DNA of 63,653 bases, counting the filler, from Folioceros fuciformis (Eukaryota): NCBI GenBank assembly GCA_049999805.1. It is 8 parts of 8 records of this genome, joined end to end, with 100 filler letters (N's around TTAATTAATTAA, not from the genome) between each part and the next. Parts side by side here need not be neighbours in the genome. Positions count along the whole stretch, not along the records: positions 43,284 to 50,048 come from JBNGIO010005854.1; 7 more parts are not named here. One strand, written 5' to 3'. This document shows positions 32,741 to 54,130 of the stretch, piece by piece. The translations under genes and the position numbers were made by a program. Numbering within the stretch: position 1 is the first letter of the stretch; each line of letters starts with the position of its first letter. The notes under the pieces were generated by a model that was not told the DNA's origin, made no database searches, and worked only from the letters and a program-made list of their open reading frames with translations.

Positions 32741-34269
32741 CTAGAATCGACAGTCCTGAAGAAGGATACCCCAGTCTACCACAGGCTGCCCATCCATGTA
32801 CTCCCAATCGTCTTGCACGTAGATGTTGCGGCTTTTGTCGAGATGCGAGGCAGGATCCAGGAGGAGGGCAGCTTTGGTGCGGTCTGGCCTGGGCGCGTCC
32901 TGCCTCCGGTTGCGGTAGCGGGCGGGATTCTTTGCGTTAAGAAGCTGCTCAGCGGGTGCTACGATGGCATCGGCGGCGATCTCGACTGTGGTGAGCAGCG
33001 AAATCTGAGTCAGGGGTCCCGACAGCACCCTGTGGTACATTGCATGGTACCTGCCATTGCTGATGGTCTGCAATGTTGGGCAAAACAATTCGGGTGCCAT
33101 CAGTACTAGTACGCCTAGCTACAGCCGTCGGTAATCCCGGGAGTCGATATCTCGCATTTTTCGAAGCAATTGCAAACTCCATGGCAGACAGTAGTGAGTG
33201 ACGAGCTTAGCTTAGCAAGTATGCACATACCTCGATATCGTTCCCGAGGTGGACCAACCCTTCGTCCAGGAGGGCGGGCGTGGTGAGCCACTGGCCGTCC
33301 ACATAGTACTGCACGCCCCTCGCACCGTCGGACAGGTTGATGTTGAACATGTCGGGGTCGCAGTGCGCTGCCAGGGCCGGAGCTGGGATCTGCCCTTCAG
33401 GGACCTCCTGCGGCGGAGTGCTGGACAGAGACACGCTGGTCATCAACGGCCCGTACTGGTCGGCGATGTACGATTCTGGCAGCCCCAGACCCTCTACCAG
33501 CAGGCCCTGCAAGAAGATGGCCACCCGATGCATTTGTTCCACGTACAGCTCCACCTTCTCCCTGCAATCAGTAATGCATTCAGCAGCCAGCAACCAACAG
33601 CGCCGGCACCCAAGTCACGAATTCCCGCTTTGAAGGACACTGAAGCATGAAAATGAGGCGTCCTGCATACCTGGCTTCCATCTGGATCCGAATTTCGGAT
33701 GCACGTACATAAAAAGAGTACCCCTACCTGAAGCCGGCAGATAAGGCCGCCTGTTGCTCCGGCCAGGCGTTCTCCCTCCTCCTCCATTCCGGGTAGGCGA
33801 GAAGGCGGTACTCCTCCCTGAATCTGGCATTCGCCTCCGTCTCGGACCCCTCGGCCCTGCTCCACTTGTAGACGTAGCCCACAGTCCCGTGCTCCATGCT
33901 CCCCGTCTTGTTACACTTCGCCTTCTCCTCCACGGGCTGGTCAAAGAATTCCTTTGTCAAATGCCGGACATCGTCCACCAGAGCCTTGTCCACCCCGAAG
34001 TTGCTTATGAAGAAGAGGCCCACTTCCGCCGCCGCTCGGATCTCGTCCACCAGCTCGGCTCGCCTTGTGGGCGACACCGCCAGGCCCCCCAGGTTCACCG
34101 TTCTCTTCACCAGCACCGTCTGCTCTCTGGTCCAGCTTTCCGGGGACTCTTTGGGAAACGCCGACATCAACGCCGACGTCGTCACAGGCCCGTGATGCAG
34201 CGGGAACCTGGCAACGGGCACCAGATTGTGGCTGTGCAACGTTAACGGCACTGCGCATAGGGCCGCCAT
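32741..34269 (-). CDS. 2-oxoglutarate/Fe(II)-dependent dioxygenase (DOXC-like), exons 34269-33728, 33561-33231, 33067-32741
   Basis: DIOX_N features (EIRAAAEVGLFFISNFGV, KEFFDQPVEEK), HCD iron motif, GNDIE|TISNGRY and HRV. Both introns are GT-AG and in phase. The start could also be ATG 34167. Confidence 0.9.
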
Positions 34270-36328
34270 ATCGCCAGCTGATGGTACTGCTGAAGGCCCT
34301 TGATCGTGATTGATCCCGCCGTGCAGATCCCGCTGTCCGTCGATCAAGAAAATCTGCAGAACTGAATAAGATGAAGCACGCCTACGCTGCGCAGCTGCTG
34401 CTGGCTCAATTGAGTCTGGACCTGGGTTCCGAGGTATTGTGGGTTTGCGAGCACGTTATATTGGCTAGAGCTCCCGGATTTGCCTGCCATAATGGATTCA
34501 GCGCCCCTGGGCGCCAATATGCTTGAGAGCCTACCACAACAGTGGATACCTGCAAGCTGACGGATCACTCCTCCTCGGAGGCAGGTATCTGCACTTGGGT
34601 CCTGCCAAATCAGTTCATGAATGTCGTCACCTCTGCCGATTTCAGCAAACACCACGGAAAAGGCTGCGGGCCCGGAGCACAGCATACCGGTCCTTCCCCG
34701 TTCGCCATGGCCGATGAGGCCGGCAGCCCGATCCGGCCGTCACTTGGTCGTTGCCGGCCTGGCCCCTGTCCGATCGCCTCATGTCCCTCCCTACACAAGG
34801 ATTTAGTAACAATAATAGTGAATTGTACAAATAATTGAGAACGTGAACACTTTATAAATATGCAACGGACGGCAAGTTCCCAACAACACGGGGTCCATGG
34901 GGAACATTTCTTCATGGGGCGGGGCCGTGGGAACAATCCTAGGCTGTGTCTATTCATTGCTCTCAGGCTGCTACTAACCAACATTTCATTTCGTTTGTTA
35001 CTGGGCTTGTGTGTTGCCTCCCATTCTTTCTCCAGAGCTTGTGTCCTTTGGCAGTAATATTGGATTGGCAAGCGAATCAAATTTCGTTTCCTGTAGGATC
35101 TTTGGACAGGTTGTGTTCATATGCTTCCAACGTTAATAGCGAGAGGTGCATTTTTCACTTCCAGCCTTCTATTCGTCCTTAATTGTCCGTATTCTTGGTG
35201 CAAGAGGTGATATCAGTGATGGAGTTCAATTCATATTCACCACCATTGTTAGTTCTCCCTTTGAATGGCCTGTCCTAATATGGATACGGTCATCGGGATT
35301 CTGTTGGTGTGAGGGAAAAAGCTGCCTTGATAAACGGCGGCAATTTGGGCCATCACAGAGATGACCACATCAGCTCAATGCCCCCTACTCAATGCCTCAT
35401 TTTTCCTTTGTCTTGGACAAATCTTTCTCACACAGGAGACGATCATCTTTGTGTGGGTGATGCTAAGGTTTGCTATGTTACCAAGGTTTCAGTGGTTGCA
35501 GTGACCATACGGGCTTTGGGCTTCCGTGTAAATGAGCATAGGATCTTTCCGGTGGATGCAACTGAGCGTAGGAAAGCCCATGGACATAGGACTCAGATTA
35601 GGAGGGTCCCAGAGAAATCTGCGCTTTCTTATTACCATATCCTTGCATTATTATCAGAGACGACCTACCGAAGGAGCCCATTCCCACTCTTCTGCCACTC
35701 TGTTGCCCTAGAAATAGCTACACAGGATGGAAAGGGGTTCAAACGTCCCTCTGCACTAGGGGCACTAATGAGGTCGTTGTTGCCACCAAGCACCTCCAAA
35801 CATGGACTGTCGCATTGCGTGCAAATTCTCTATGATAATGCTGCTCCCGGGCACCAACAATACGGCCTCCAGGGCCCATTTCTTGCTGGCTTGAGACGAG
35901 GGCGCCACCCACATTTTACGATGCCAAGATTGGGCTTCGTTTTACAAACGCTACCAAGTTTTTGTAGGCATTCTTCCAAACAATCTGTCGAGACTGAAAA
36001 CAATCACGATGTGGGCGGTGTCCCTATCGATTTTCCCTAGTCCCAATCATCGAACGTGAATATTGACTTATAGCAGCAGATGATAGTGGTGTGAAAGAGA
36101 TGAATTTGTGAAGGCTGAAGGTCAAGATTGAACATCTGACGCATACTGATTCCCAGTTTTTCGAGTCACAAGCCTGACTGCCTCACACGGAGCCATGGCT
36201 GCCTGGAGGCTTGAGCGCAGTCTGGGAAGAGCTTCGTCTGGCCTGACTCTGAGGAACAAAAGGCTTCCAAACAACAACGGAGCCGGTCGGTGCAGCAACA
36301 AATTTGCAAGAGATCAACCCCGATTAAG

Positions 36329-39300
36329 AGCATGTGTGGTGGCTGGAGGCTCGTCTCCAAGCGAGGCCGTCTCCAGGAACCATTTTGGCGACAAGGCTTT
36401 CCGGACCTCAGATTCTGCCAACGTGGCAACAGTCTTCGTTCAGCTGTCTTCCGGCATATGCAGGCCCAGGGAGTCCTGTTTTCCTGCAACTTATGTGAGG
36501 CAGTCGGGGTAGATGCTCATCCTGGAGCTCTGGGTGTCAAAATGGTGTGTAGGGAGTCGAAGTCGCACTGGAGCTTGCCGTATGATGCTGGCCCTTGTAG
36601 GCCCGTAGAATACAGATCGAGGGTAACGTCTGAAACCGTGACCAAGCTGTGTGATGAGGGACGTGCTAGGGAGGCCGTTGAGGCTTTGGGATTGCTGGTG
36701 CAGACAAGCTGTCCTGTTTCCAGGTACCTCTTTTATGCTGTGCTGAAGAAGTGTGCAGTCGAGAAGGACCTTGTTCTAGGCCGTCGGGTTCATGCTTTCA
36801 CAATTAGAGGAGGATGCGGTTCGGACTTGTTCCTGTGCAATCACATGCTGCGAATGTATGCTGCTCATGGCAGGCTGCAGGACGCCGTGGATGTGTTTGC
36901 GATGGTGGCTGAGCCGGATGCCTTCATGTGGTCTTCCATGATGTCTGCGCATGTCAAACATGGGCAAGACAAGCAGGCTGTACAACTGTATCGGCGGATG
37001 CTCAGGTCACGTGTGGGGCCAGATAGCCATGTCTTTGTGGCAGCCCTTCAGGCTTGCGCAAGGGGGTCAGATTTGGAAACTGGGCATCAGGTGCATGCCG
37101 ACATGCTAGCCAGTGGAGTCGAGTGTGATACGTTTGTGTGGAATTGCTTGGTGTACATGTACGCGAAGTGTGGCAGGTTGGAGGAGGCTCAGAGAGTGTT
37201 TGAGGGACTTGGTCAGAAAGATGTGGCGTCGTGGAATGCATTGATCGCCGGGTATTCTCAGCAGGGCATGGGCCACGAAGCCCTTCGCCTTTACATGGCT
37301 ATGCAAGAAGAGGGCATGTCTGTACCGGATTCAGTGACATTTTTGAGCCTCCTACAGGCATGTGCGAATGTGGGCAGCCCAGCTTTGGAGAAGGGAAAGG
37401 AGTTAGAGGCTCAACTTAGAGAACAAGGATATGATGCTGACGTTTTCGTGGCCAGCAGTTTAGTCAACATGTATGCCAAGTGTGGCAGCTTGGAAGACGC
37501 ACAGAGAGTGTTTGCAGGTCTTTCTCATAAGGACGTTGTAACATGGAATACCATGATATCAGGCTATGTGCAGCAGGGTATGAGCCAGGAAGCCCTTTGT
37601 CTTTACAATGCCATGCAACAAGAGAGTACGGCTGAACCGGATTGTCTGACATTTGTGCGCCTCCTGCAGGCATGTGCGATTGCGGGCAAGCCAGCTTTGG
37701 AGAAGGGGAAGCAGCTTCATGTGCAAATCAGAGTGCAGGGACATGAAACTGATGCCATTGTAGCCACGAATTTGGTAAACATGTATGCCAAGTGTGGCAG
37801 CTTGGAAGATGCCATGACTGTGTTTCAAGGACTTGGTGAAAAAGATGTGGTGGCCTGGACTGCTATGATGTCTGGCTATACTCAGCAGGGCAAGGGCCAG
37901 GAAGCACTTCGCCTCTACAGTACTATGCAACAAGACAGTGCCAGTATTGCAGATAGCGTGACATTTGTGTGCCTCCTGCAGGCATGTGCAACTGTGGGTT
38001 CCCTGGCCTTGGAGACGGGGAAACAGCTTCACGCACATATCAGAGGGCAAGGGCATCAAGTTGATATTTCTGTTGCGAATAGTTTGGTAAACATGTACGC
38101 AAAGTGTGGCAGCTTGGTCGATGCTCGCAGAGTGTTTGAGGAACTTGGTGAAAAAGATTTGGTGACTTGGAATACCATGATGTCAGGGTATTCCCAGCAG
38201 GGTATGGGCCAGGAAGCCCTTCATCTGTTCAGTGCCATGCAAGAACATGGCATCTCTGTGCTGGATTCTGCGACATTTGTGTGTCTTCTGCAGGCATGTG
38301 CAAGTGTGGGCACCCCAGCATTGGAGAAGGGGAAGCAGCTCCATGCACAAATCGCAGAACCTGATGTGTTTGTGGGGAACAGTTTGGTACACATGTATGC
38401 AAAGTGTGGCAGCTTGGAAGATGCTGAAAGTGTGTTTGGGGGGCTTCATGAAAAAGATGTGGTGACGTGGACTGCTATGATAGCAGGGTATTCCCAGCAG
38501 GGAAAGGGCCAGGAAGCCCTTCAGCTTTACCGTTTAATGCAAGGAGATGGCCTCACTGTCCCCGACTGTGTGACGTTTGTATGCCTCCTGCAGGCATGTG
38601 CTAATGTGGCAGCTGTGTATCTCGGGAGGCAGCTGCATGCCCAGATTGAAGAGAAAGGGCTTCAATATGATCCATTCGTGGCAGGGAGTTTGATAAACAT
38701 GTATGGAAAGTCTGGGAGCATGGTTGAAGCTCAGCAGGTGTTTGACGCCTTGCCCAAGAGAGATGAGGTCTCCTGGAGTGCGCTGATTGCGGGCTACACC
38801 TCTCAGGGAGACAGTGAAGCTGTCTTTGACTTGATCGAGAAGATGAAACAGGAGGCCATACAGCCAGTCAGCGTCACATTCCTCTGTGTACTTACAGTAT
38901 GTTGTCATTCGGGTCTAGTGAACAAAGGGAGAGAGTACTTCGAGTGTATGAGCAGACACCACGGCATCACTCCCACCGTGGAGCACTATACATGCATGGT
39001 GGATCTCCTGGGCCGTGCAGGCCGCCTGGATGAGGCACTGAGGTTGGTACGGTCAATGCCTGTAGTGCCGAATGCTGCAATTTTTCACACTTTGTTGGCA
39101 GCCTCCCAAAAGTGGAGCAACGTTGAGGTGGGACACCAGGCTTTTGTGCAAGCATTGAATCGCGACAAGAGTGATTCGGCAGCATATGCCTTGATGTCCA
39201 ATATCTACAGGGGTGCTCACATGTGGAAGCACGCGGATGAGGCTCAGGCGAGGAGAATAAGGATGAAAGCGTGGAAGCCTCCGGGTCAAAGCTGGTGGAC

Positions 39301-39376
39301 AGACTCGGATGGACTGGTGCACAGTTTTTTGGTTGAGGATAGGAAGCCTTCAAGAGTCTTGCAAGGCATCAAATAG
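36329..39376 (+). CDS. PLS-class pentatricopeptide repeat protein, E+ subclass (WW-type PG box), organellar RNA-editing factor
   Basis: Intronless ~1000-aa ORF with about 7 P-L-S triplets (MYAKCG period mostly 312 bp), P2-L2-S2 (HYTCMVDLLGRAG), E1/E2 (AAYALMSNIY) and KPPGQSWWTD...VHSF, then stop. Start codon uncertain (~36329 or 36542). Confidence 0.95.
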   Translation, partial: SMCGGWRLVSKRGRLQEPFWRQGFPDLRFCQRGNSLRSAVFRHMQAQGVLFSCNLCEAVGVDAHPGALGVKMVCRESKSHWSLPYDAGPCRPVEYRSRVTSETVTKLCDEGRAREAVEALGLLVQTSCPVSRYLFYAVLKKCAVEKDLVLGRRVHAFTIRGGCGSDLFLCNHMLRMYAAHGRLQDAVDVFAMVAEPDAFMWSSMMSAHVKHGQDKQAVQLYRRMLRSRVGPDSHVFVAALQACARGSDLETGHQVHADMLASGVECDTFVWNCLVYMYAKCGRLEEAQRVFEGLGQKDVASWNALIAGYSQQGMGHEALRLYMAMQEEGMSVPDSVTFLSLLQACANVGSPALEKGKELEAQLREQGYDADVFVASSLVNMYAKCGSLEDAQRVFAGLSHKDVVTWNTMISGYVQQGMSQEALCLYNAMQQESTAEPDCLTFVRLLQACAIAGKPALEKGKQLHVQIRVQGHETDAIVATNLVNMYAKCGSLEDAMTVFQGLGEKDVVAWTAMMSGYTQQGKGQEALRLYSTMQQDSASIADSVTFVCLLQACATVGSLALETGKQLHAHIRGQGHQVDISVANSLVNMYAKCGSLVDARRVFEELGEKDLVTWNTMMSGYSQQGMGQEALHLFSAMQEHGISVLDSATFVCLLQACASVGTPALEKGKQLHAQIAEPDVFVGNSLVHMYAKCGSLEDAESVFGGLHEKDVVTWTAMIAGYSQQGKGQEALQLYRLMQGDGLTVPDCVTFVCLLQACANVAAVYLGRQLHAQIEEKGLQYDPFVAGSLINMYGKSGSMVEAQQVFDALPKRDEVSWSALIAGYTSQGDSEAVFDLIEKMKQEAIQPVSVTFLCVLTVCCHSGLVNKGREYFECMSRHHGITPTVEHYTCMVDLLGRAGRLDEALRLVRSMPVVPNAAIFHTLLAASQKWSNVEVGHQAFVQALNRDKSDSAAYALMSNIYRGAHMWKHADEAQARRIRMKAWKPPGQSWWTDSDGLVHSFLVEDRKPSRVLQGIK

Positions 39377-40047
39377 AAGTTTTGAGCGGGAAAAGCAATG
39401 CTTGCATGAGCGCAGCGATCTGACCCCTACGTGCAAATTTTGCATCCCTTCCCGCTGTCACAGAGCGCTCACAGGCAGTAGAGTCGCAGATTTAGCATTT
39501 GCAAGCAGCCAGTTCCAGCCACCTCAAACTTAGTTTACTTACGCCTGAGTTCACGACATCGGCGAGGGCTGGTCTCCACGGAAGTTCATGTAAGCAGGGG
39601 GCAAGTTGAGCCCTCTACAAACCTCCAGCCTGGTTCTGCCACGGAGCCCTGTGCTCTCCTCGGCGATGTAGCTTACCAGATACCCTCACATATATTGCAG
39701 CATTCGTGGAGGGATGAAATTTGGGCTAATACAGAGCCTCGGGCCTGACGATAGCGGTATTCCACACAGGCCCGAGTGCGGGGAGAATCTTCGCTGCACC
39801 AGACTCATATAATACTTACTATTTATGCATGCAATGGGATGGATGGCTAAGTAATAAGGCTTGGTTTGTTTCGTTATACACAGCAGCCCGCTTGACGAGA
39901 TCAGTATTCCACACCCTAAGGCTATTGAGACTATGTATGTCTTCTACNNNNNNNNNNNNNNNNNNNNNNNNNNNNNNNNNNNNNNNNNNNNTTAATTAAT
40001 TAANNNNNNNNNNNNNNNNNNNNNNNNNNNNNNNNNNNNNNNNNNNN

Positions 40048-41028
40048 CTTGTAGCCTTGTACACCAGCACCTACAGCCGTGGTCAGCAGCGTGCTCTCCA
40101 GCAGAGTATGCCCTCCTGCTGCGGGATCAGAGGGCGTATCAACAGCGTGCCCTCCAGCAGAGTGCCCTCCCGCTGTGTGCCCTCCTGCTGCGGGATCAGA
40201 GGGCGTGATCAACAGCGTGCCCTCCCGCAGAGTGCCCTCCACCTGCAGCTCCTCCTCGAAGTCCATGACATGGCAGGCCGCCATGTCCGGCCCCTGATCC
40301 ACCACCATGTCCCGCATCTGGTCCGGCACGGGCACGGGGACGGGCACTGGCAGGGGCAGAGCCAGGGACCGGATTTGCTCGTCCGGCCGACATCCCCACC
40401 TGGCCTCTGCCTTCTTGTGGTTTTCAGAGTTAGCATGGCAGCGCAATGCTGACAGCTGCAGGTTCCTGCACCCGGATCCCTTCCCCCAGGGCGTGTCCAG
40501 CCCGCCCTCCTCGTAGTACTCGCAGTTCATAACGGTCTCCCCGCTGGGCTTCTTCCTGGTGATGACCCACGGGTAAAGGTACCTCCACGCGTTGCGTAAT
40601 TGGCGCTTGAAGAGCTTCTTCTTGAGACTGGCGGAGCTGGCCAAGCCCATATCCACGCCTCCTTCTTGCTCGTCCCCCCTTCCATTCCCAAAACCCGGCT
40701 CGTGCTCGTGATCCTGATCCTGCTCTTGCTCTTGCTCCTGCTCCAGCTCCAAGTCGTTGGCATCCCCGTCCCTGTCCTCCTTGTCGTCCTCGAAATCCAA
40801 GTCATCCTCGCCGTCGGCCCCGACGTCGTTGCTGCCCTCCCCAAGACTGGCGCTCCCGCTCCCGCTTCCCGCGGGCCTCATGCCATCCTGTAGCCCGTCC
40901 CCGGGGAAGCGCGGATACGCATCCGCGCCGGCAAGAAGCGCCCCCAAGGTGACAGCCTTGCTCTTTCTTGGCCTGGCGGGCTTGTCTGCCAGGCCGGCAG
41001 CGGCGGACGCAGAGGCAGCGGCCGACAT
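40048..41028 (-). CDS. Protein with a TTF-type (hAT-related) zinc finger, acidic tract and GGH-rich repeats; truncated at contig end
   Basis: RQLRNAWRYLYPW...MNCEYYE...WGKGSG...LSALRCHANSENHKKA matches the ZnF_TTF-like W-PW/CxxC/HxxSxxH pattern. ATG 41028 is in frame. Confidence 0.7.
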
Positions 41029-43667
41029 CGCAGGAAGGGATCCCGCCCTTGCCCCGCCCCGTGTCACCGCAGGCCAGCCGGGCTCCGCACAGCATCTTGC
41101 CCGCTGCCCCGCAGCAGGGAAGGAGCAGAATTGAGGCGCCCCTGGTGACGAGTTCTCACATCCTGAGCAGCGCGCGTCATGGACGCATGAGGTCACGGGG
41201 CTGCCTCCAGCCCGCAGCCAGTCGCTACACGTGGGACTCAAACAGCACCAGCGCTTGCGCCATCAAAGATCTGGATCACGCCATCACAACAGCAGCGAGC
41301 GGCTGGCAGAGGCAGAGGCAGAGGCAGAGGTGAATGCAGGAGCAAGAAATCCTCATGAACCTGGTTCCCGAGCAGCAGAAGCGCACAGCGCAATTTCCAG
41401 CAGCCGCGCGTCCCGAGGCGAGGCGAGGCCCAGGCCCAGGCCCAGAGCAATTGGTGCCGGCGCCGGCCACCCTCCCCTCAAACTCCGTGCCAAGAGAATG
41501 CTAACGGGTTACAAGCCGCTGCGGGAATGGGAATTGCTACAGGCGTGCAGAGTTGCAAGAGGCAGATGAAGCCTGGGAAGAGGCGGCCCAAGGGGAGGGG
41601 AGGGCGTAACCAAGAGCTGCAGCGGCCAGCAACCCGGCAACGCAAACTCGGGCGTGGCGAATGCGAGGCCAGGCGAGGCACAGGCGAGGCACAGGCCCCG
41701 GGCGAAGGCGACGCGGACGGTGGAGCAGCTGCACCTGCAGTCGCAACAGTATGCTCGGTCCTGGAAACAGCCAAAGAGAGAGAGGCGACGTGGCGTCCAC
41801 CTCGCTTATCGCTTATTAGCTACCTGCTGCTCTGCGCTAGTACGCGTGCGTTACCTAAACCCCCAGGATTGCCCGCGCTTGCACCCCACCCACCGCCTGC
41901 TTTTGCTAATGCCACTCCTAATGCTTGTGACTATGTTTACGCTTCCTCTTACCCCTACGCTTATGCTTTTGTGGTGCTACACATCCTGGGTCGGGCCTGA
42001 ACCGGGCTCACTCTCACATGCACCACGCATATTCCTTCTAAACCGTAAACTCTGTCGCAAATGCTCAGAGCGAGCACACACACCTCAACAGCACCATTGT
42101 CCCGTGGCTCTTCCATGTCATAGCTTTCTTCTCCGCGCACACTCACCCAACAAACGCACTAAATGTGATGAAATCACAATCCATCACAGTAATAGTATCC
42201 ACAATTCAGTGGTCACTAGCCGTGTCAAAGTGATATGCTTTAGCACACCTTGGCTTTCCAAATTGTACCAGATAAGTCATCCTGTGTGAAGAAGAGTTCG
42301 TATTGGGCACTCGTAGCATCCCAGAAGCCTAGTGTTGCCTAGTGTTTAAGAGGGGATGATTGAAGTACTAGAACCGGACCATCACTGGTGTACTACAACC
42401 CACCGACTGTGGAGCTACCTCCACTTAGTCTTTAAGAGTGGATGAAGTGCAAGAACCACACCATCAATGTTGTACTTGAATCCACCCTCCTACAGTGGAG
42501 CTTCCGAGGAAGCTCCACTGTGGAAACTAGGGTTGTATGAAACATTTCAAACACTTGCTTAGTGTGTCAATGTCTTGAATGTGGTACTTGGCCTTTTGGA
42601 CATCGCACAAGTCTGTTCGACTGAAAAGTTTTGCAAATGGTACAAAAAGTATAAAGACTTGATCTCTGCCTACAATGGTACACAAGTATAAAGACTTGCT
42701 CTCTTGGATTGGGTACAAGGTTGTTCTACTTGAACAACTCTATCAATGCTTTTTCTGCAAGCTACATTATAAGTACTATGCATTCTACACAGTGTCGTCC
42801 AATGACAATGAGACTACTTTAACTATTCGCGTATCAAAGTAAATCATAGATGTTAACATGATCTCCTCACTTTGAATTGATTAGAGATGGAATAAATTTG
42901 ATCGCAAACTTTCCATCACTTGCATTAGGGTAGACATTAGATAAGCACTTTCTATCAATACATTACACCATAACTTGTAGAGAGGAGTAGGTAGGTCCGG
43001 ATCTACTGGCCCTTTCCATCTTTAGCCTTCTTCAAGTTGTTTCTCCCCATTTCTTGGGTAGTTGGAATCTCCATCTCTTTTAATAAGATAATGGATAAAT
43101 AAGAAAAGAAAGATTGCTAAGACTTGGTGACTGCCGGCACGTCCGGTCCCCACAGGCTTGCAAGTCACCTGACTGCCTTCCTCNNNNNNNNNNNNNNNNN
43201 NNNNNNNNNNNNNNNNNNNNNNNNNNNTTAATTAATTAANNNNNNNNNNNNNNNNNNNNNNNNNNNNNNNNNNNNNNNNNNNNATTGATCAACATGTTGA
43301 TTTAATCTGCATATTCATTTAATCAAAAATGGTATCAGAGCAGGTTATATGCAATCTTCATGTTATTTGATGCACATTACAGAATGCATTTACGTAAAGT
43401 TTTGTTATTCTTTTGATTTAGAAAAATGTTTTCTTGATAAGAAAACAAAACTTTTAAAGAACATATTTTGTGTTTTTTATTTATATAAAAATCCAAGAAT
43501 TCCTGGCAAATTAAGGAAGTGATCCTGGCGCATTTGTCCTGGATTGCTTTTTAAAGCAATCTCAGGACATATGCGCTAAGACAACTACCTAATCTGCAGG
43601 TAGATTGTTAGACATATTTATATAAATACAATGAACATTTAACAAAACAAAAATTTTGGCCTGATGA

Positions 43668-44411
43668 ATGGCCAATCAATTGGTCGGGCACCAGTGGCAG
43701 CCTCGCCCTACTGAGCGGATTCCACAACTTCAAAATCGCCGCAGGAGGCAAGGAGCACAAGCTGCAAGGAACGCAGTTGCTGGTCAGCTTCATCAACATG
43801 TGACCGAATGGATTGCTACAATACAAGACCAGCCTGTCCTTGCACTTGAAGTAAGGGAATCTTTCAATCCTTTGATTGAAGTGATTTATCCTGAACAGCG
43901 CCACTTGGTGATTGCCCTTCCACCCCGCAATCCTAACAATCTCCCAGAAGTTCGCGTTCAAAGAGCCTTTGATGGGAATGGTAACCCTAGAGGTTTTCTA
44001 ACAACACATGTCTCTTCACCTGCCAGTGTTGCACAGTTAGTGAACAGGATTGAGTCACATCAGCAACATGTGGACACACGCTTTAGCAGTATCATGCACA
44101 AGGTATATGCTAACAGTGTAGACTTGAGAGATTTGCAAGAGCAAATAAGTCAATTGGATTTCAAGCTTCTTACCTTGTTAAAACCATCTTTGCTTGCTAA
44201 CCCTATACACAGAGGTGTAGCCTGCAAGCATGCAACGAAAACAAGTAAAAAACATATGTTTGGAAGTCCTAATTCTTGTCCATCCTGCTCTATATATGCT
44301 TACAATAAGTGGGAGATTAGAAATCAGAAAATCAGAAACGGAATTCAACAACAAGAGTCAAAAGCTAGACTTGTAGCTGACAGACTCCCTGATGCTGTCA
44401 ACATACTGTAA
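43668..44411 (+). CDS. Intact extra ORF0 of Copia F (247 aa; basic N-terminus, coiled coil, CxH...CxxC)
   Basis: Uninterrupted ATG-to-stop ORF between PBS and the gag ATG (44527). Homologous segments in elements A and B. Confidence 0.75.
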   Translation: MANQLVGHQWQPRPTERIPQLQNRRRRQGAQAARNAVAGQLHQHVTEWIATIQDQPVLALEVRESFNPLIEVIYPEQRHLVIALPPRNPNNLPEVRVQRAFDGNGNPRGFLTTHVSSPASVAQLVNRIESHQQHVDTRFSSIMHKVYANSVDLRDLQEQISQLDFKLLTLLKPSLLANPIHRGVACKHATKTSKKHMFGSPNSCPSCSIYAYNKWEIRNQKIRNGIQQQESKARLVADRLPDAVNIL

Positions 44412-44526
44412 CTGAGCTGCATGTGCATTACATGTTTGAAGTCTTGAGTCTTCTAACCCCTGCAAAGCCATCACCGAATCTTAGTAATTTTGGGAGTAGC
44501 TAACCCAAAAATACCAAAGGGGTAAA

Positions 44527-47500
44527 ATGGCATCTGCAGTAGATACCTCATCTAGCTTGGGTGGGGAAGGGTTCAAGGAGAAAGATAGGTTTGGAGGTCA
44601 GGATGACGACATATGGGTAATCCGCATGAAAGGGGCCTTACAAAATAGGAAGTTGTGGAAGGTAGTCATTGGGGAAGAGAAGGCCCCAGTGGCCCCCACA
44701 CCTCCCACATTACCTACAGCTGCTGAGAAAAAGTTAATTGATGCATGAGATGCAAAGGATGAGGAAGCTATGTTCCTCATCAGGAGTGGTCTTACCTCAG
44801 AGATGTTAAGACAGACTTCAGAATGTACAACCTTAGCAGAAATATGGATAAGACTTCAAGACCTGTATGCAGGCAGCAACCAAACAAGTCAAATGACAGC
44901 TTTGAGAAATTTACAATTATGTAAAATGAGAGAAGGAGAATCAATCGAAAAGCACCTTTAGGACACTTGTGTCCAGACTTGAAAGTGCTTCAAACGAGGT
45001 TGTTAAAGATGATACACTAATACTTTACTTCCTCATATCCTTACCAGACTCTTGGTCACATTTTGTGACCTCCTTCAATGCCTCGAGACTCCAGACTGAG
45101 AAACTTGCAAAGGCAGCAGGTGTAATCCTGCCAGAAACCAGCTTTGCAGAGTTAGTGGGAGCCTTATTGCAAGAGGAAGCAAGCAAATCTTACAACAGAC
45201 GAGCTGGTAAGCAGCAAGCCCTCTATACATCCAACAGAGGACGTGGAGGAGGAAGACCCTATAACAGGGGTGGGGGCAGTACCTCGAGAGGTGGTGGTTC
45301 ACAAGGACGTGGAACCAGCCAAAGAAAACCCAAAAGGACAGGAACTTGCAACTGGTGCAAATTACCTGGTCATTGGGAGCGTGAGTGTAGGAAAAAGCAG
45401 GCTGGTGTACCTCGCAAGGAGGGTTCGACCAGTGCTGAGACTCACATGGTTGTTAAGAAGCAACCAACCCCCTCTGCCCTCACAGTTGGTACAACAGTGT
45501 TTGCCACAAGTTCATCCTTGTCACCTGCTTGTTTGTTAGCAAATACAAAGGTTAAGTATACCATAGATTGGTACTTAGACACAGGGGCTACTGCCCATAT
45601 TTGCCTAGACAGAAAAGCATTTCAAACGTACAAATCAGTTAAGGATCAGTACGTATACCTGGGGGATGACAGATCTCTGGTGTCTCCTGGCATTGGAACA
45701 ATAGAACTGCTTGTTCCATCAGGAAATGTATTAGTGTTGCATGATGTGTACTATGTACCAGACATGACACGTAACCTCATTTCAGTCAGAAAGCTGAATT
45801 CTGATAATCACTGTCACATTCTCTTTATTCAAACAGAATGTCAAGTATTAGATGCCTTTAATCATACTAGAGTACTTGCCTTTGGGTCTTCTGAGAAGGA
45901 CTTGTTCCGTCTACATACAGATAGAAGTATACCATTTTCTCATTTGACCAAGGATGCTACTCATGCATCTGCACAGCAAATAGAAAAGTCAAAACTATGG
46001 CATTTACGATTAGGGCACCCACATTCAGCAAAATTACAGAAATTAGCTGTAAGTGATCTTTACCAGCATGGGCAGATAGGTCCTCTGGTGCCATTTCCTT
46101 TGTGTGAGTCTCGTGTTCTCTCAAAGCGGCATCAAGCAGCCTTTAAGAACAAAGAACCACACAGAGCTACAGATGTCCTGGAACTTGTTCATACGGACTT
46201 ATGTGGACCACTCTCACAAGAATCCATTGGTGGTGGCAAGTATTTCCTGACATTTACAGATGACAAGACAAGGTTTGTAACAACCTATATCTTAAAGCAA
46301 AAGAGTGAATGCTTCAGCTATTTTAAAGAATATCTCAAGTATGTTGAAAGGTGGACTGGAAAACAACTAAAAACCCTAAGATCTGATAACGGGGGAGAGT
46401 TTACCTCAAAGGAGTTTCAGGACTACTGTTTAACTGAGGGTATTGGACGCCAGCTTACAGTTGTCTACACGCCTCAACAGAATGGTGTGGCTGAGCGCCT
46501 CAATCTTACGTTGCAGGAGATGACATCTTCTCTCCTACATCATGCTCAACTGCCCCTGCCATATTGGGCAGAGGCCATTATGACATCAACCTATCTCAAA
46601 AACAGATTGCCTACCACTTCAGTAGTTGATCTTACCCCTTATGAAGCGTTCACAGGGCGCAAGCCATCCATACTTCACTTGCGTATCTTTGGTTGTAAAG
46701 CATACGCCTTTGTTCCTAAGGAGAAAAGAAAGAAGCTATTAGATAAGGCTAGAAAACTTCTGATGTTAGGCTATACAGAGGGCATCAAAGCATATAAACT
46801 TTATGATATACTTTAAAATAAAGTTATCTACGGTAGGAGCATTACTTTTGATGAAGGTAGCACTTGGGCCTCAGTGGGAGTATCCCAGGATCCTCCTCTT
46901 GGTGACGAAGAGGCATCAGCGTTTCAAGATTCACACTTTGACCAGACTGATCATGGCACTCAAGTTGTTCCTGTTGAGGATGTTGCCCCTGTGGGTGGGG
47001 TAGATCCGGCTGATGATATTGATGATTCAGCAGGTTTTGATGATGTAGCTGTAGAACCTGCACAACAAGATGTTCCAGACAATCATCAGGATCAACAGGA
47101 CCATCATCCTCCAGAACCAATTGCTGATCCGATTGAGCCTACCTTAGATGCTGAGCTTGTTCACCCTCCAGTTGCTGAAGAACCAGTTAGAAGGTATCCC
47201 ACCCGCCAGCGACAACCTCCTGACTACTACCGTGCTCTGGATTTCCGAGTTTCTTCTTCTCATGTGACTGTCAATGCTGCCACTTCTCTTGATCCCATTG
47301 AGCCTCAATCCTATGAAGAGGCGTTGCGTAGACCTGATCACAAAGAATGGGAAAAAGCAATTCAATCAGAGTATGACTCATTAATGGAGAACGGAACATG
47401 GGAACTAGAGGAGTTACCTCCATAAAGAAAGCTAGTTTCATGCAAATGGGTTTTCAAAATGAAGGTTAAGGCAGATGGTACCTTCGATCGTTACAAGGCT

Positions 47501-48891
47501 CGTTTGGTGGCAAGGGGATTCTCTCAGATCCCTAGCTTGGACTATCTTGAAACGTTTTCTCCAGTAGTCAAGTTGTCCACTCTTCGAATTATCCTTGCCA
47601 TATCCACACATTACGATTATGAGTTGCAAATGTACGATGTCAAAACAGCTTTCTTATACGGCAAATTAGACACAGAAATATACATGCAGCAACCGCCTCG
47701 ATATGTAGTGAAGGGTAAAGCAAACTATGCCTGTAAGCTGATCAAGTGTATATATGGGTTAAAGCAGTCAGCTATGAAATGGAATGCTGCCCTAGATACA
47801 GAACTTCTACAGCTTGGATTCACAAAGAGCCAGGCAGACAGCAGTCTATACATATACTCGAAAGGAGAGGTTATATGCTATCTGGCAGTCTACGTGGACG
47901 GTCTGATACTGTCCAGTAACAGTCAGGCCTTTATAACAAGCATTACAGATGTGTTGGCCACTAAGTTTAAGATGTCATGTTTGGGACCCTTACAGAGCTG
48001 CCTTGGAATACACATTCAGAGGGATAGAAAACAACGGGTTATGACTCTTACTCAACCACGTTACCTTCTTGATTATGTTGAACAGCTAGGTTTAAAGGAT
48101 GCCAAGCCTGCATCGACACCCATGGCAGCAGGTCAGAAACTTAGCAAGGCTATGTCATCAACTACACGTGATGAGAAAGAACAGATGAAGGGCGTACCTT
48201 ACAGACAAGGTGTTGGCAAGCTTATATACGCTAGTAACACGACGAGACTTGAAATAGCTTATTCTACAAGTGTACTCTCCCAGTTCTTGGAAGATCCAGG
48301 ACTGGAGCATTGGACAAGTCTTAAGCGTGTGTTCAGATACCTGAAAGGAACACCCAGATTAGGTATCACGTACAAGTATCAAGAAGGAAAAGCATTGGAC
48401 CTGGAAGTCTTTACTAACTCTGATTATGCAGGTGATATTGATAGCAGAAAATCAGTATCTGGTTACCTGATTAGAATTGCTGCAGGGCCAGTTTGCTGGT
48501 CAAGCAAAAAGCAGCCTACAGTCGCTCTTTCTTCGACAGAAGCAGAGTATCGTGTACTGACTGCAGCAGCAAAAGAGGTAGCTTGGTGTAAGCTACTGTT
48601 TAAGGAGTTAGGCATCTCGATCCCAACTTGTACCACAATACAAACCGACAACCAAGGTTCGATGGCTTTAGCCAAGAATCCAGTGTTCCATGCACGAACG
48701 AACACGTGGAGGTGGAATACCATTACATCAGAGGACTGGTAGCAGAAGGAAAGATTGAACTTCACTATGTCTCAACTCAAGAAAACCCGGCAGACATACT
48801 TACAAAGGCTTTGAGCAGAGATGCTCACAACAAGCACATTCAGCGTCTTGGTATGGGAGAGGCACAAGCCTTCTCATCCAGTACAATCTAA
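44527..48891 (+). pseudogene. Copia F gag-pol polyprotein with several lesions
   Basis: FKEKDRFGG, CNWCKLPGHWEREC, WYLDTGAT, LRSDNGGEF, YVDG (degenerate YVDD), SSTEAEY. Stops at 44746, 44959, 46814, 47423 and a frameshift near 48700. Confidence 0.95.
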
Positions 48892-48904
48892 CAAGAAACC
48901 TAGC

Positions 48905-49843
48905 CTAAAACACCGGTGACTCATAGCCATCAAAATAAGCAGAGCATCCAAAGTCTATCTCGTCTCCAGACTGCTGGGATTCGGAAGTAGACTCATCTTC
49001 TATTGGGTAAGGGTTGTGACAGCCACCAGGTGACAGATCTCCAGGAAAGCCAGGATGGACTCTTTTCTTGAGAGGGGTTTCTTCAACTCTCAGCCTTTCT
49101 TCCTTCTTAGCCTCCTCCCTGAGTCTCTGTATGTAAACCGAGAAACAAGAAGATTGTAAGTAATCCTGCAAAAGATAACAGCAACAAAAGGACTTGATAC
49201 AGCAAGCAAGAACAGCAGCAGCTACTCACTGTACGTGTTGACCACATGGACAGGGATGTTCTCACACACTTCGACCTTCATGCGCTGCATCTTCAATTCA
49301 GTAAGACCGACCCACACCAAATACCAGAAAGGTGAGCAAGGATGCTCCAGTGATCCACAAGTGACAATATGGGTCTTCATGAAGCCGTGCCTTGGCTTTG
49401 GGAACTTCGCAGGCACACGCCGTGCTGGGCCATCTTCGTAGTAAGCAAAATCAAGGTTCAGAACTCTGACCAGAGGGGTGTATCCAGTCTGTGGCGGCGG
49501 AGAAGAGTCGTGAGTGTCCATATATTGCTGACCAGCAGCAAGTTCAGCATTGCGCCACTCCAAGACTTTTTTTGGTTGTCCCCTTCGGCCTGCCAACAGC
49601 TCGCTTGCTACAGGAAGCCTTTGTCTCAGCGGTTTGATCACTTCTGGTAGTTGTCTTAGTCGCAAATCTTCCTAGGGCGTCACGCTTGTGACGGCGGCGG
49701 TGCTTGGGAGCATCGGAATCAGAACCAGAAGACATGATGAAGAGAAGGCACGAGATCCAGCGCTCCAGCAGCTCAGACAATGCAAGAGACAAGAACCAGC
49801 TGAGTTTTATGAAAGCGGCGGCATCACCACCAGAACTCATCAT
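48905..49843 (-). other. Antisense coding-like region of Copia F (three consecutive ORFs, possible 64-nt intron 49229-49166)
   Basis: ORFs 49843-49544, 49665-49222 and 49171-48905 tile the whole pol-to-PPT gap. GTGAGT...TCTTTTGCAG intron-like segment. Confidence 0.5.
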
Positions 49844-50148
49844 GCTCAGCTGGAGAACGTGGAGCGCAATTGTGTACAGTTGTCTTTGGGACGTAACACG
49901 CAGTTGAAGTAACGTTCACGAGGACTGAGCGGCGGCGTACCGTGCGCCGGAACGTACACCTAAATCATTATCAGCAAGTGGGAGTGTTAAAGAGTATTCG
50001 CATACATATGCTGATTATATTTAGGGCACGTTTGGTTAGCTTAAGTGANNNNNNNNNNNNNNNNNNNNNNNNNNNNNNNNNNNNNNNNNNNNTTAATTAA
50101 TTAANNNNNNNNNNNNNNNNNNNNNNNNNNNNNNNNNNNNNNNNNNNN

Positions 50149-53100
50149 TCCTGCAAGAGCAAGATCCAGCGAGCTATGCGGCCCGATAGGTCTGCCTTGT
50201 TGACCAGGTGCTTGAGAGCAAAATGATCAACATGGAAGACAAACTCATAGGAGAGGAGGTAGTGGCGGAATTTACGACAAGAGTAGACCATGCCAAGTGC
50301 CTCCCTCTCGGTTGTGGTGTACTTGCGTTCAGCCTCCGTAAGTTGATGTCCAACATAGTAGATTGGGTAGTCCCTCCCCTACTCATCCCGCTGGCTAAGG
50401 ACTGTCCCAATGGCAAAGGCTGAAACATCCACGTACACATGGAATTTCTTGTCCCAATCAGGCCCCTTGAGTGTTGGTGCTGTCACAAGAGTGGTCCTCA
50501 AGTCCTGAAATGCAGCCTCCCTCGCCGCTGTCCACTCCCAAGATTGCTCCTTCCTCAATATGCCCGTCAAAGGGGCAGCCCATCTAGCAAAATTTGGCAC
50601 GAATCGGCGGTAGTATCCCACCATCCCAAGGAAACCACGCAGCTCCTTCAGTGTGGCTGGGGCCCTCAAGGCAGCAATCACCTTCACCTTGTCCGGGTCC
50701 ACTTCAATGCCCCTTGCTGAAATTCTGTGACCTAGCAAGATCCCTTCAGCCATGCCAAAATAGCATTTCTCTGGATGCAAACAAAGCTGCGTCTCACGGC
50801 ACCTGGCCAAGCACAGCCTTAGGTGCTCTAGATGCTGCTCCACCCCTCCAGACACACAAAAATCATCTATGAACTCCTCTAGGAACTTGTGGAGGAAATC
50901 CTTGACGATCTTGTACATGCTGCGCATAAAGGACCCCGGTGCTCTTGTCAGCCCAAAAGCACTCCTCTTGTAGGCGAATGTCCCCCAATCAGTTGTGAAG
51001 GCTGTCAATGGCCAGTCACTCTCCCTGAGGGACAGCTGATTGTAACCAGAATAGCCATCCAAAAAAGAGTAAATCATGCGGCCAGCCACCAAATCCAGAA
51101 TGTTGTCAATGAATGGCAAGGGGAAATGATCCTTCTTGGTGGCTTTGTTCAGCCTTCTCCAGTCCTGGCACACTCGGATCTTCCCTTGCTGTTTCTTGGG
51201 CACCACCACGATTGGGGCCACCCAATCTGAGTTCACAATTGGAAAAATCACATCTGCCTTCAAGTATTGCTCCAGCTGTTCCTTTACCTTCATGGAGTAT
51301 TTTGGATTCAGCTTGTATTGTGGAATTCGAACGGGAACAGCGCCTGGCTCCAAGTCAATCTTGTGCTCCCCCCACTCTTTGGGAATTCCCTTCATGTCTG
51401 TCACCTCAAAGGCAAACACATCGATAAACTCAGCCAGGAGTTGCTTCATTCCCCCTTCCAATTTGGCATCCAGCTGTTTGGAAAACTTTAGCACCTTGCC
51501 TGGAAACACCTCTACATCCTTAATTTCATCAGCCTGCACCCATTCACGCTGCACGGGTGCCGAGCTGACTCCAAACCCTTCTTCCGGCTCTCGGGGATCT
51601 TCCTCCCTCATTCCCCATTCCATGAATAAGTCTTCGGAGGTGAATCTAGTGACCTCTGTATCCTCACCAGCAAGCCCTTTAGACCTTGGGTCATAGCCCC
51701 CTTCCCTCATCTCATCTTCCTTCACACCCCTCTTGGCATGGGAGGCTTTTTCCTGGCCCTTCCCTTCAGCAACTCCAGCAGCCTGTCCTTCCACGTTTGC
51801 TGCTTCAGCCCCTACCATGTTGCAGTCCAAGGTGATCCCAAAACACTCGACCCGGTTCAGGGTATAAGGAATATCCCTTCGATAGTCCTCCTCTTCATCT
51901 GTCCATGATATGTGGGAAAAAGGGAATTTATCTTCCCCTTCCCCCTCCTCCAAATCAGTTGTGTCCCCCACGGACGTGTACCCCTCCGTGTCCGTTGGGG
52001 TCTCTCTGAGGTAGACATCCCGGCTCCAGCTCAAACAAATCCTACCCTCCTTTGTCTTGGGGTTCCATTCAGGTGGTTTGAAAGCCACCTCCTTCCTTCC
52101 CCATGACAGCCTGCACCTCGATCCATACAGCCAAGTCCTGCCCAGCAAGATGTCGTAGCCTGGTGCCTTGTGTTGAATGACCACAAAATCGAGAAGGTAG
52201 GGAATGGTCCCTATGGTCGTGGTTACCCCTCTCAGCTCCCCCACTGGCTGCATTCTAGACATATCGGCCAACCTCAAGACCTTGGTTGTGTGCTCGATCT
52301 CCAATCCGAGTTTCTTGGCGGTATCCTCCGTCATAATATTCACCCCTGAACCTGTATCCAGCGGCACCCTCTTAATCACACAGCCTGCAATTTCCACCTA
52401 CAGTTCAGCCGGTCCCTGGTCCACCATGGACACCATGTTGACCATGGGAGCCGACAACCTTGGCCCTGATTTAGGTAGCCTCTTCCTTCTCTTGGGTTGG
52501 GCCTCCTGCAATGCCTTCCGGACCTGCTGTCGATATTTAGGGTTATCCTTCAGGAGCTGACCAAAGGTAATAGCAAATTGCTGGTCCATGATGGCTCCAG
52601 CCAAATCAAATGGCTTCTGGACAGCCCCATTGGTGCCTTTGGTCACCGCTGCCACCTCCCTAGGTGGCAGACTTGCAGCCACGGGTGCTGACTCCTTTGC
52701 TGCCCTATCCAGCTCCTCCTGGATCATGTCTAGTACCTCTTCCCTCACATCTGGAGGAAATTCCATGTTTCCCCCCTTTGCTGGGGCTGCTCCCTCTCCA
52801 GCCCTTGATTTTTTCTCCTTGGGGGTCTGCCCTTCCTGGTCTCCTTTCTCCCGACATGATTCCTCCACATTTGGGGTGCCCTTCTCCTCCTCCGATCCTG
52901 CAGCAGATTCCACTTCCTTCCCCTTCTTCTTGGCACCCCGCTGCCTTCCCCTTCTCTTCCCACTACGAGTACATACCGCCATGGCTGCAGCCTCCCCATA
53001 ATAACCCTCCTTAGTGCTGTCCAGCCCTTCCAGCCCCTTAAGCACCTTGGCCTCGGCCTCCTCCCAAACAGCCATGAGGGCATCCTCCACGTGCATGGCC

Positions 53101-53190
53101 GTTGCAGCCCCTTGAGGTGCTGCTTGCAGCACCCCTGTCACCGCTGGCTGAGCAATCCTCACGCTCTTCCTAGGGTTCTGACAAAGCACG
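50149..53190 (-). mobile_element. Ty3/Gypsy gag-pol fragment (protease-RT-RNase H)
   Basis: LDTGSGVNIM protease, DWRRLNKATKKDHFPLP, LDGYSGYNQ, FIDD, YVDVSAFAIG and DHFALKHL...GRIARW in PR-RT-RH order. In-frame TAG at 52398. Confidence 0.95.
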
Positions 53191-54130
53191 NNNNNNNNNN
53201 NNNNNNNNNNNNNNNNNNNNNNNNNNNNNNNNNNTTAATTAATTAANNNNNNNNNNNNNNNNNNNNNNNNNNNNNNNNNNNNNNNNNNNNGCCCAGAGCG
53301 CTCTGCCGACAGCCCGCCTCCAACGTCCCGCCAGGTTTACAGCGCCCGCCTGGCCGGCACTAGGCTGCTTGTCTGCAGTCGGGCCGGGCTGCCTGCCTGC
53401 AGCCGGACGAAGCTGCCTGTTTCCAGGCGTGACCAACCACAACCAGCCTAGGCGCCCAGCCGGGCCTCCTGCACTTCGGCTGGCCGATTTGCCCAGGCAG
53501 GTCCGCAGTCCGATCAGCCAACCTGTCCCCCCTGATCCGACTGGTCGACAGCCTGCTTGGGATCTTGCAGCTAGGCTGCTGTCTAGCTTCTTGATCTTGC
53601 CCCGGCCATCTAGAGCCCCTAGCCAGCTGTCCTGATGGACGCGATCCAGGATAGCCAGCCATGACTGTCTGAACCCTGCGTCACCTGGTTGCTGCTATCA
53701 GGCTGCCCCTTGAGCCTGTGGCCAGCCGGTCCCGTGGCCTAGCAGAGATCCTAGCCGGGATCCGATCCCGGCAGCCTGCTCGCCACCGGCGCGGGCTGGG
53801 CTGCTTGGCTAAGCTCCTCAACCGGCCATCACCAGCCAGCAGCCCCTCTACCATCCTTCTCACATACCTGGCCCCCCTCCTGGCCAGCATGATCTAGATC
53901 AGCCAGAGGCCCGTCTGGCTACGATCCAGCGCCGCCTTAGGCTATCCGGCCCAGCTGCGACCAGCCGCCATGGCCAGGCCACCTGCCCAGCCAGCCTGAA
54001 TCCGGCTGGCCGCCTGCCTGCTTGGGCCCTGCAGCCAGGCTGCTGCTTGGCTTCTGGATCTGGCCCAACCTGCTACGTCTTGATCTGCCCCTGTAGCCGG
54101 CCAGCGACCGCCTGACCTGAGCCTCACCTG

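Follow-up and report, generated by a model that had tools for sequence, protein, structure and literature searches.

The stretch of DNA analysed here (the window; 63,653 nucleotides (nt), filler included) derives from the genome of Folioceros fuciformis (GCA_049999805.1) and consists of small contigs strung together by N44-TTAATTAATTAA-N44 linkers or by N10/N100 gaps. One of these contigs, 6765 nt in length (43284-50048; JBNGIO010005854.1), holds a single Ty1/copia long terminal repeat (LTR) retrotransposon, designated Copia F, and is flanked by N blocks at 43184-43283 and 50049-50148; eight further N blocks lie elsewhere in the window. Between the stop of the element's pol gene (48891) and the presumed purine tract and LTR start (49976/49985), open reading frames (ORFs) on the minus strand tile positions 48905-49915. 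In location and orientation (from pol to the 3' LTR, antisense to gag-pol) they correspond to the class of retrotransposon genes termed aORF-3'R. An earlier reading of this sequence (the original prediction) had proposed an intron-containing accessory gene convergent with gag-pol. The interpretation that we favour, with a confidence that falls a little short of an even call, is that the region may hold an antisense accessory gene of the aORF-3'R class, an orphan with an intron, borne by the Ty1/copia element itself. Its constituent features are:

49544-49915, minus strand: first frame, 123 codons from stop to stop (ORF list).
49547-49735, minus strand: first frame from Met 49735, 5' part of the proposed exon 1; Ser/Asp-rich start, KHRRRHKR, GRPKG.
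49567-49573, minus strand: homopolymer run of 7 bases, within the 125-nt stretch shared by the first and second frames; the coding signal passes from one frame to the other here.
49222-49671, minus strand: second frame, 149 codons from stop to stop (ORF list).
49230-49671, minus strand: second frame as the 3' part of the proposed exon 1; open from 49671, with a Met at 49521, and ending one base into a codon at 49230.
49166-49229, minus strand: proposed intron of 64 nt, GTGAGT...pyrimidine-rich...TTGCAG, with 29 T and 12 C; the second-frame stop lies 3 nt inside it.
48905-49225, minus strand: last frame, 106 codons from stop to stop (ORF list).
48905-49165, minus strand: proposed exon 2, with its stop codon at 48905-48907; in the window, the last ORF's own frame is valid only from 49123 downwards.

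The original prediction had described three minus-strand ORFs filling the space from the pol stop to the polypurine tract, the last of them ending 14 bp from the pol stop, and this is what we found: the stop codon at 48905-48907 begins 14 nt past 48891. The basic KHRRRHKR and GRPKG stretches that it had pointed out are both present in the first frame, downstream of Met 49735. This frame also holds KRAVGRPKGTTKK, which may resemble canonical AT-hooks (a GRP core with basic flanks). The description of the basic stretch as resembling a nuclear localisation signal or an AT-hook stands as a likeness of motifs; the first frame gave no Pfam AT-hook match at E<=0.1.

The extent to which such tiling exceeds chance can be gauged from dinucleotide shuffles of the region. 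The three longest minus-strand frames total 378 codons, a sum reached in 7 of 2000 shuffles, and the longest frame by itself (149 codons) was reached in 56 of 2000. Crossing the region on the minus strand takes five frame switches, compared with a shuffle mean of 10.4 (five or fewer in 22 of 2000 shuffles); on the plus strand it takes nine. Because the region was picked out of a 63-kb window, the ORF-length statistic would be weak if taken alone, and one alternative is that we are looking at the non-coding spacer of a decaying element in which the frames and a GT...AG pair coincide by accident, as might occur somewhere in 63 kb. In favour of this explanation, which we regard as quite unlikely, 7 in 2000 is not a strong result given about a hundred 1.1-kb strand-segments as trials, and in the window copy two breaks interrupt the frames. 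Splice sites and codon usage provide evidence that does not depend on the ORF statistic.

Codon usage was modelled on eight other coding ORFs of the window, none of them from the copia element, and the score of a frame was taken relative to the models of the five other phases. In leave-one-out trials known ORFs scored 0.065-0.159 (one exon entered out of frame scored -0.104), and the gag-pol segments of the copia element scored +0.112 and +0.118. Against this yardstick, the codons used between Met 49735 and the stop at 48905 resemble those of genes, and the best frame switches exactly where the ORFs do. The first frame, from Met 49735 to 49547, scores +0.156, a value reached by 0.29% of 5426 shuffled ORFs; the second scores +0.096 (reached by 3.7% of shuffled ORFs of like length), and +0.134 when counted from the 7-base run onward; and the last, from 49123 to 48908, scores +0.120 (reached by 2.05% of the 5426). 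Among 218 real ORFs of the window that lie outside annotated genes, 2.3%, 11% and 6% reach the scores of the first, second and last frames, respectively. The part of the first frame upstream of its Met (49736-49915) scores -0.121, which is not gene-like, and the coding signal of this frame therefore begins at Met 49735. In the 125 nt where the first two frames are both open, the score is 0.134 for the first and 0.029 for the second. A sliding frame plot ranked the first frame best at the outset (11 of 11 windows), the second frame after it (16 of 17) and finally that of the last ORF (14 of 14). A coincidental set of frames would not be expected to carry codon usage in all three segments, to switch at the ORF boundaries, or to have a coding signal that starts at a Met and ends at a stop codon.

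The base composition of the codons adds two observations. GC content at first codon positions exceeds that at second positions (GC1>GC2) in the second and last frames. Third-position GC is 0.51 in the second frame and 0.43 in the last, between the values for copia pol (0.30-0.43) and for a host pentatricopeptide-repeat (PPR) gene of the window (0.55), and this speaks for another alternative, namely that the region is a piece of a captured host gene. Under that explanation, this one low-copy family acquired at the DNA level a host gene, or only the 3' part of one, together with a single intron; the insert came to lie in reverse orientation downstream of pol and ahead of the purine tract and would serve the element in no way. 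Both the intron, a good one, and the gene-like codon usage would be inherited from the donor. We consider capture unlikely. No plant or other protein was found that resembles the three frames, and the unit fills the space from pol to the purine tract end to end, with its own start and with a stop 14 nt from that of pol, which is unexpected for a random fragment.

The candidate intron was first recognised as a 64-nt GTGAGT...pyrimidine-rich...TTGCAG segment, and it is indeed found on the minus strand, running from GTGAGT at 49229 to the end of TTGCAG at 49166. As judged from its bases, the segment carries the GT donor, pyrimidine tract and AG acceptor of a spliceosomal intron. Both strands of the window (127 kb of strand scanned) contain 45 GTRAGT sites, 10 of which have a TKCAG 50-210 nt downstream. 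Only one of these 10 pairs has at least 70% pyrimidine in the 20 nt before the acceptor, and that pair is the 49229-49166 segment, in which the last 20 nt ahead of the acceptor motif are 80% pyrimidine. This unique set of splice signals falls precisely where the second frame gives way to the next, an arrangement that is difficult to ascribe to chance. A local reference for splice sites is provided by the one multi-exon host gene of the window:

32741-34455, minus strand: 2-oxoglutarate-dioxygenase-like host gene with three exons (DIOX_N, 2.2e-14).

Both introns of this gene end in TTGCAG, like the proposed intron.

If an intron lies antisense to the genomic RNA of a retroelement, it should survive reverse transcription. 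The original prediction treated this as established, and the logic holds as the converse of that behind retrotransposition indicator cassettes, in which only an intron in the sense orientation relative to the element RNA is lost on retrotransposition (PMC12786077). The proposed intron reads CT...AC on the genomic RNA and so would not be removed, and it would be kept through every retrotransposition. The indicator cassettes are engineered, whereas the copia unit would be a natural gene that keeps its intron by virtue of its antisense orientation.

The phase of the splice is less straightforward. By manual counting, codons start at 0 mod 3 in the second frame, at 2 mod 3 in the frame entered after the splice, and at 1 mod 3 in the last ORF. 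As written in the window, the splice is thus out of phase with the last ORF, as had been noted at the outset. Public sequencing runs provide an additional view of this region. Six runs are listed, and two DNA runs from one sample (X1 and X2) contain the stretch (73% and 65% of sampled words); none of the listed runs that contain it is recorded as RNA. Reads of runs X1-X4 were compared with the whole contig at 80% likeness. The run contigs listed that are about 99% like the window cover 47925-49556; those from X1 differ by 6 letters in 1064 nt and by 7 in 514 nt, and that from X2 by 17 in 1632 nt. Length differences from the window occur in the X1 and X2 contigs in at least two places. The first is an addition of 11 letters behind 49124, present at full depth in both runs (33.8 of 33.8 in X1; 46.1 of 46.1 in X2) and lacking in X3 (0 of 8.12). 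These 11 letters shift the post-splice frame from 2 mod 3 to the 1 mod 3 of the last ORF, and by this count of phases the splice would be in phase in the run copy; they add no stop by our own reading. The second is one extra letter at 48700, in the overlap of the last two pol frames (48604-48742), found at depths of 35.1 of 39.6, 46.1 of 56.1 and 17.5 of 17.5; because of it, at least one of the frame breaks in the window's pol is absent from the run copy. At both of the listed insertions or deletions, then, the run copy is less damaged than the window copy. The agreement in phase is a further point that an accidental arrangement of frames would not predict. Run X3 showed 578 C>T and 519 G>A places, as against 7-52 for every other kind of change, and because such an excess is the pattern of a bisulfite or enzymatic-conversion library, its differences do not represent variation between copies.

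The same runs inform on copy number and on relatives. Depth over 48934-50048 amounts to about one contig per run, and the whole element at 99% likeness is similarly low. Depth at this level over the region suggests one or few copies, as a captured fragment might show, but the region is not singled out, since the same low depth extends across the element. Relatives 81-84% alike cover ORF0 (a sense ORF upstream of gag) and gag-pol, and none covers the antisense region among the matches listed. Run X4, which we guess to be RNA, yielded five contigs below 95% likeness, confined to gag-pol and ORF0, with none over 48934-50048; it offers no evidence either way.

Several lines of evidence weigh against an element-borne gene, and they concern the state of the window copy, the proposed intron, and the absence of relatives. 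In the window copy the splice does not lead into the last ORF in phase, nor does the first frame run on into the second: the post-splice frame is open over 49277-49110 and stops at 49107-49109, and passage from the first frame to the second involves one unexplained phase step at the 7-base run. The run contigs listed end at 49554-49556, short of this run (49567-49573). The phase fit provided by the 11 letters comes from one sample, and the chance of obtaining it by luck is about one-in-two to one-in-three. The intron, at 64 nt, is much shorter than the host introns of about 166 and 163 nt, and no CTRAY branch-point motif was seen within it. Because depth is about one contig, the copia family looks low-copy. 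A second intron joining the first and second frames was considered and rejected, as the 125-nt overlap is purine-rich, with no pyrimidine tract or good donor by eye.

Searches for relatives are equally part of this balance. For the second frame, 58 candidate proteins of similar length included none at E<=0.01, and HMMER against 1.84 billion representatives gave no homologue beyond two matches that we judge to be spurious (P0001 and P0002), tandem-repeat proteins that were matched in four and seven stretches. The search with the last frame returned one candidate, and none was confirmed. Pfam gave no match to the three frames at E<=0.1 except a sub-threshold DUF6054 in the first frame (14 bits, cut-off 27), and a sequence search of the PDB with the second frame gave no match (best E 0.31). 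In metagenome contigs, 83 pattern matches to the second frame, and in viral contigs 9 pattern matches, were followed up and none was confirmed. When the element's reverse transcriptase (RT) was used as the query, 44 metagenome copia loci were recovered at 30-62% identity, and these contained nothing like the three frames or ORF0 (best E 0.14). A protein search with the RT, limited to lengths of 240-767 residues (a filter that hides full polyproteins), gave identities of at most 47%, except for a 244-residue fragment at 75%. Within the window, blastn with the contig found itself and a 93-nt match at 73%, with no second copy, and tblastn with the frames found no non-self match better than E 0.03. 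A published criterion for a real antisense ORF of this kind is that it be present in most copies of its family and conserved like the other proteins of the element (PMC7264820, section 5); in the window, no sister copy was found on which such conservation could be read. Rfam returned nothing near threshold, and the only tandem repeat is a trivial 19-nt row. A single-sequence AlphaFold2 model of the second frame had a mean predicted local distance difference test (pLDDT) score of 34.9, with no residue at 50 or above. The missing homologues and sister copies, the lack of RNA support, and a structure model without confidence are all what a non-coding spacer would give, and the low copy number together with the absence of a relative keeps the capture of a host fragment alive.

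Taken together, the ORF tiling, the codon frame switches, the set of splice signals, and the phase fit of the run copy agree with one another, and for this reason we hold a real or recently real gene to be more likely than chance. An element gene is favoured over a captured host fragment because the unit fits tightly into the space from the pol stop to the purine tract, which its 5' end adjoins, and because it has its own Met and stop. The original prediction is supported in part: what stands is a convergent unit with gene-like codon usage, a splice-signal set unique in the window, and a splice that would fit in phase in the run copy; a homologue or sister copy was not found, and the join between the first and second frames takes one additional phase step. 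On this reading the window copy of the antisense gene would be a damaged one, as is its gag-pol.

If this reading of an element-borne gene is correct, transcription would start near the purine tract or the LTR edge and head toward pol. A TATA-like TAAATATAAT on the minus strand at 50023-50014, 279 nt upstream of Met 49735, could act as the promoter. Met 49735 would open translation (Met 49521, should the first frame lie outside the gene), and the two frames would meet at the 7-base run. The 64-nt GT-AG intron at 49229-49166, whose signals are visible, would be removed, and reading would end at 48905. The antisense message would end within the antisense of pol, so that the two messages would converge and overlap. 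The intron, being CT...AC on the genomic RNA, would be retained and copied at every retrotransposition. With Met 49735 as its start, the predicted product would have about 255-260 residues (about 186 if it starts at Met 49521) and would consist of a basic N-terminal part that suits the nucleus or DNA, an orphan middle containing Cys and His, a charged stretch, and an acidic tail.

The convergence of the two messages is also compatible with a different function. The unit might be a spliced non-coding antisense RNA that, for instance, pairs with the 3' part of the genomic RNA and leads to small-RNA silencing or damps reverse transcription, in which case the frames would be incidental or relics. 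Such an RNA would converge on pol and overlap the genomic RNA by more than 1 kb, the window copy is not translatable as one frame, and non-coding antisense RNAs of retrotransposons are documented (micropia, TART and Ty1 RTL, cited in PMC7264820 and PMC12786077). It would leave unexplained the in-frame codon usage, the GC1>GC2 periodicity, and the phase fit of the run copy, and we judge it very unlikely.

The carrier is itself informative. The Pfam domains over 44930-48742 run in the order Retrotran_gag_2, Pol_BBD, gag_pre-integrs, rve, SH3_retrovirus and RVT_2 (E 5.8e-59), and the position of integrase before RT identifies the element as Ty1/copia. Its features are:

43284-43325, plus strand: end of the 5' LTR, last ~42 nt, ending ...TTTAATCA; boundary placed from the sequence and from the position before the primer-binding site (PBS).
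43330-43341, plus strand: PBS, TGGTATCAGAGC (from the sequence).
43668-44411, plus strand: ORF0, a sense ORF of 247 codons between the PBS and gag (ORF list).
44527-48891, plus strand: gag-pol (ORF list and Pfam), with stop TAA at 48889-48891.
49976-49984, plus strand: presumed polypurine tract, a short purine tract AAGTGGGAG, placed from its position before TG...
49985-50048, plus strand: presumed 3' LTR, first 64 nt, TGTTAAAG... (from the sequence).

Because the ~42-nt and 64-nt LTR pieces of the contig do not overlap, the limits of the LTRs and the purine tract are presumed ones. The PBS presumably matches the 3' end of the initiator tRNA-Met. In most plant Ty1/copia lineages tRNA-Met is the dominant PBS type (Neumann et al. 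2019; PMC6317226, Additional file 5). The gag-pol of the window copy is broken by three in-frame stops (ending at 44748, 46816 and 47425) and by two frame changes, near 44930-44961 and at 48604-48742. ORF0 sits in an unusually long leader of 1.2 kb from the PBS to gag. Its codon-usage score of +0.072 falls inside the range of known genes, and it has no Pfam match and no PDB match in a sequence search (best E 0.27). Contigs about 82-84% alike match ORF0 in the DNA runs and in run X4, and the same organism therefore holds diverged ORF0 relatives.

Elsewhere in the window, a gypsy element at 50379-53234 has no positional relation to the copia element, because a linker separates the two contigs. 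An intronless ORF of 1053 codons at 36215-39376 (plus strand) encodes a PLS-type PPR protein with an E motif (PF13041, 5.3e-112; PF20431, 8.9e-09), which indicates a land-plant host with organelle RNA editing. Further, a 420-codon ORF at 40000-41262 (minus strand), which starts at a linker in a stretch of 62% GC and matches zf-C17orf113 (PF25431, 2.1e-11), is possibly a transposase-derived gene.

Extra ORFs antisense to the genome and located between pol and the 3' LTR form an accepted class, described for Grande, RIRE2, Retand, PvRetro13 and the fungal Boty (PMC7264820). According to the same review the function of aORF-3'R is unknown, and gene23 is reported to be nuclear and transcribed from its own promoter. 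The copia unit shares with maize Grande gene23, rice RIRE2 and Silene Retand its place between pol and the 3' LTR, its antisense orientation, and a lack of similarity to known proteins; a basic region suggestive of a nuclear protein is likewise common to aORF-3'R elements and to the copia unit. The differences are also clear. Grande, RIRE2 and Retand belong to the Tat/Retand group of Ty3/gypsy, with spacers of 3-6.5 kb and ORFs conserved in most copies, whereas the carrier of the copia unit is Ty1/copia, its spacer measures 1.1 kb, a single copy is known, and an intron divides the proposed gene. In Retand, 97% of clusters encode antisense TRP28, which is predicted to bind DNA and for which a regulatory role has been suggested (PMC11963269); TRP28 is reported from flowering plants only, and the word 'intron' is absent from that paper. 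Retand TRP28 (Transposase_28) resembles the copia unit in being an antisense gene in the pol-to-3' LTR region, but the TRP28 domain itself, PF04195, had no match at E<=0.1 in any of the three frames. Grande gene23 and Retand TRP28 suggest by analogy that the product of the copia unit would most likely act in the nucleus, on the element's own expression or on its nuclear steps.

Extra ORFs are also known from copia elements. Neumann et al. (2019; PMC6317226) counted extra ORFs of at least 250 codons in 582 copia elements, which fall into 45 groups. Across the 16 copia lineages of their survey, the typical 3' extra ORF is in the sense orientation (74% in SIRE); the antisense 3' kind is given as 1% in SIRE, and the other lineages lack it or are unclear, Bianca and Ikeros having two numbers each that are not assignable to a column. 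Copia F resembles the elements of that survey in its tRNA-Met type PBS and in having extra ORFs on either side of the polyprotein, the 5' one in sense orientation. An intron-split gene would escape a survey of this design, which admitted an ORF only if it ran uninterrupted for at least 250 codons. The review of antisense ORFs calls for a search for antisense and spliced transcripts, and the word 'intron' is absent from its text (PMC7264820). In open full-text literature (subscription papers being outside the search), we found no description of an intron-containing antisense ORF in a copia element. The copia locus therefore fits aORF-3'R by place and orientation and differs from the described cases by its Ty1/copia carrier and its intron.

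A likeness beyond plants is to HBZ of human T-cell leukaemia virus type 1 (HTLV-1), a gene that likewise lies in antisense orientation at the 3' end of an element replicating by reverse transcription. Transcription of HBZ starts on the side of the 3' LTR, and a spliced form of it exists. It is a nuclear basic leucine zipper (bZIP) protein of an infectious animal retrovirus, has its first exon in the LTR, and shows no sequence relation to the copia unit, the proposed intron of which is internal. The nuclear localisation of HBZ is mentioned in PMC11963269. A more far-reaching proposal, which we think somewhat unlikely, is that Copia F represents a 'complex' plant Ty1/copia lineage, combining a sense ORF0 in a 1.2-kb leader with an HBZ-like antisense gene that would have its own promoter, a retained antisense intron, and an orphan nuclear or DNA-binding regulator as its product.

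Nearly all antisense accessory genes known in plant LTR retrotransposons come from large Ty3/gypsy elements of the Tat/Retand group. If the copia unit is a true gene, this gene arrangement would have arisen independently in the other superfamily, Ty1/copia, and it would provide a natural case of a retroelement intron kept by orientation. Surveys of long uninterrupted ORFs would then undercount split genes, which may be commoner in copia elements than the literature suggests.

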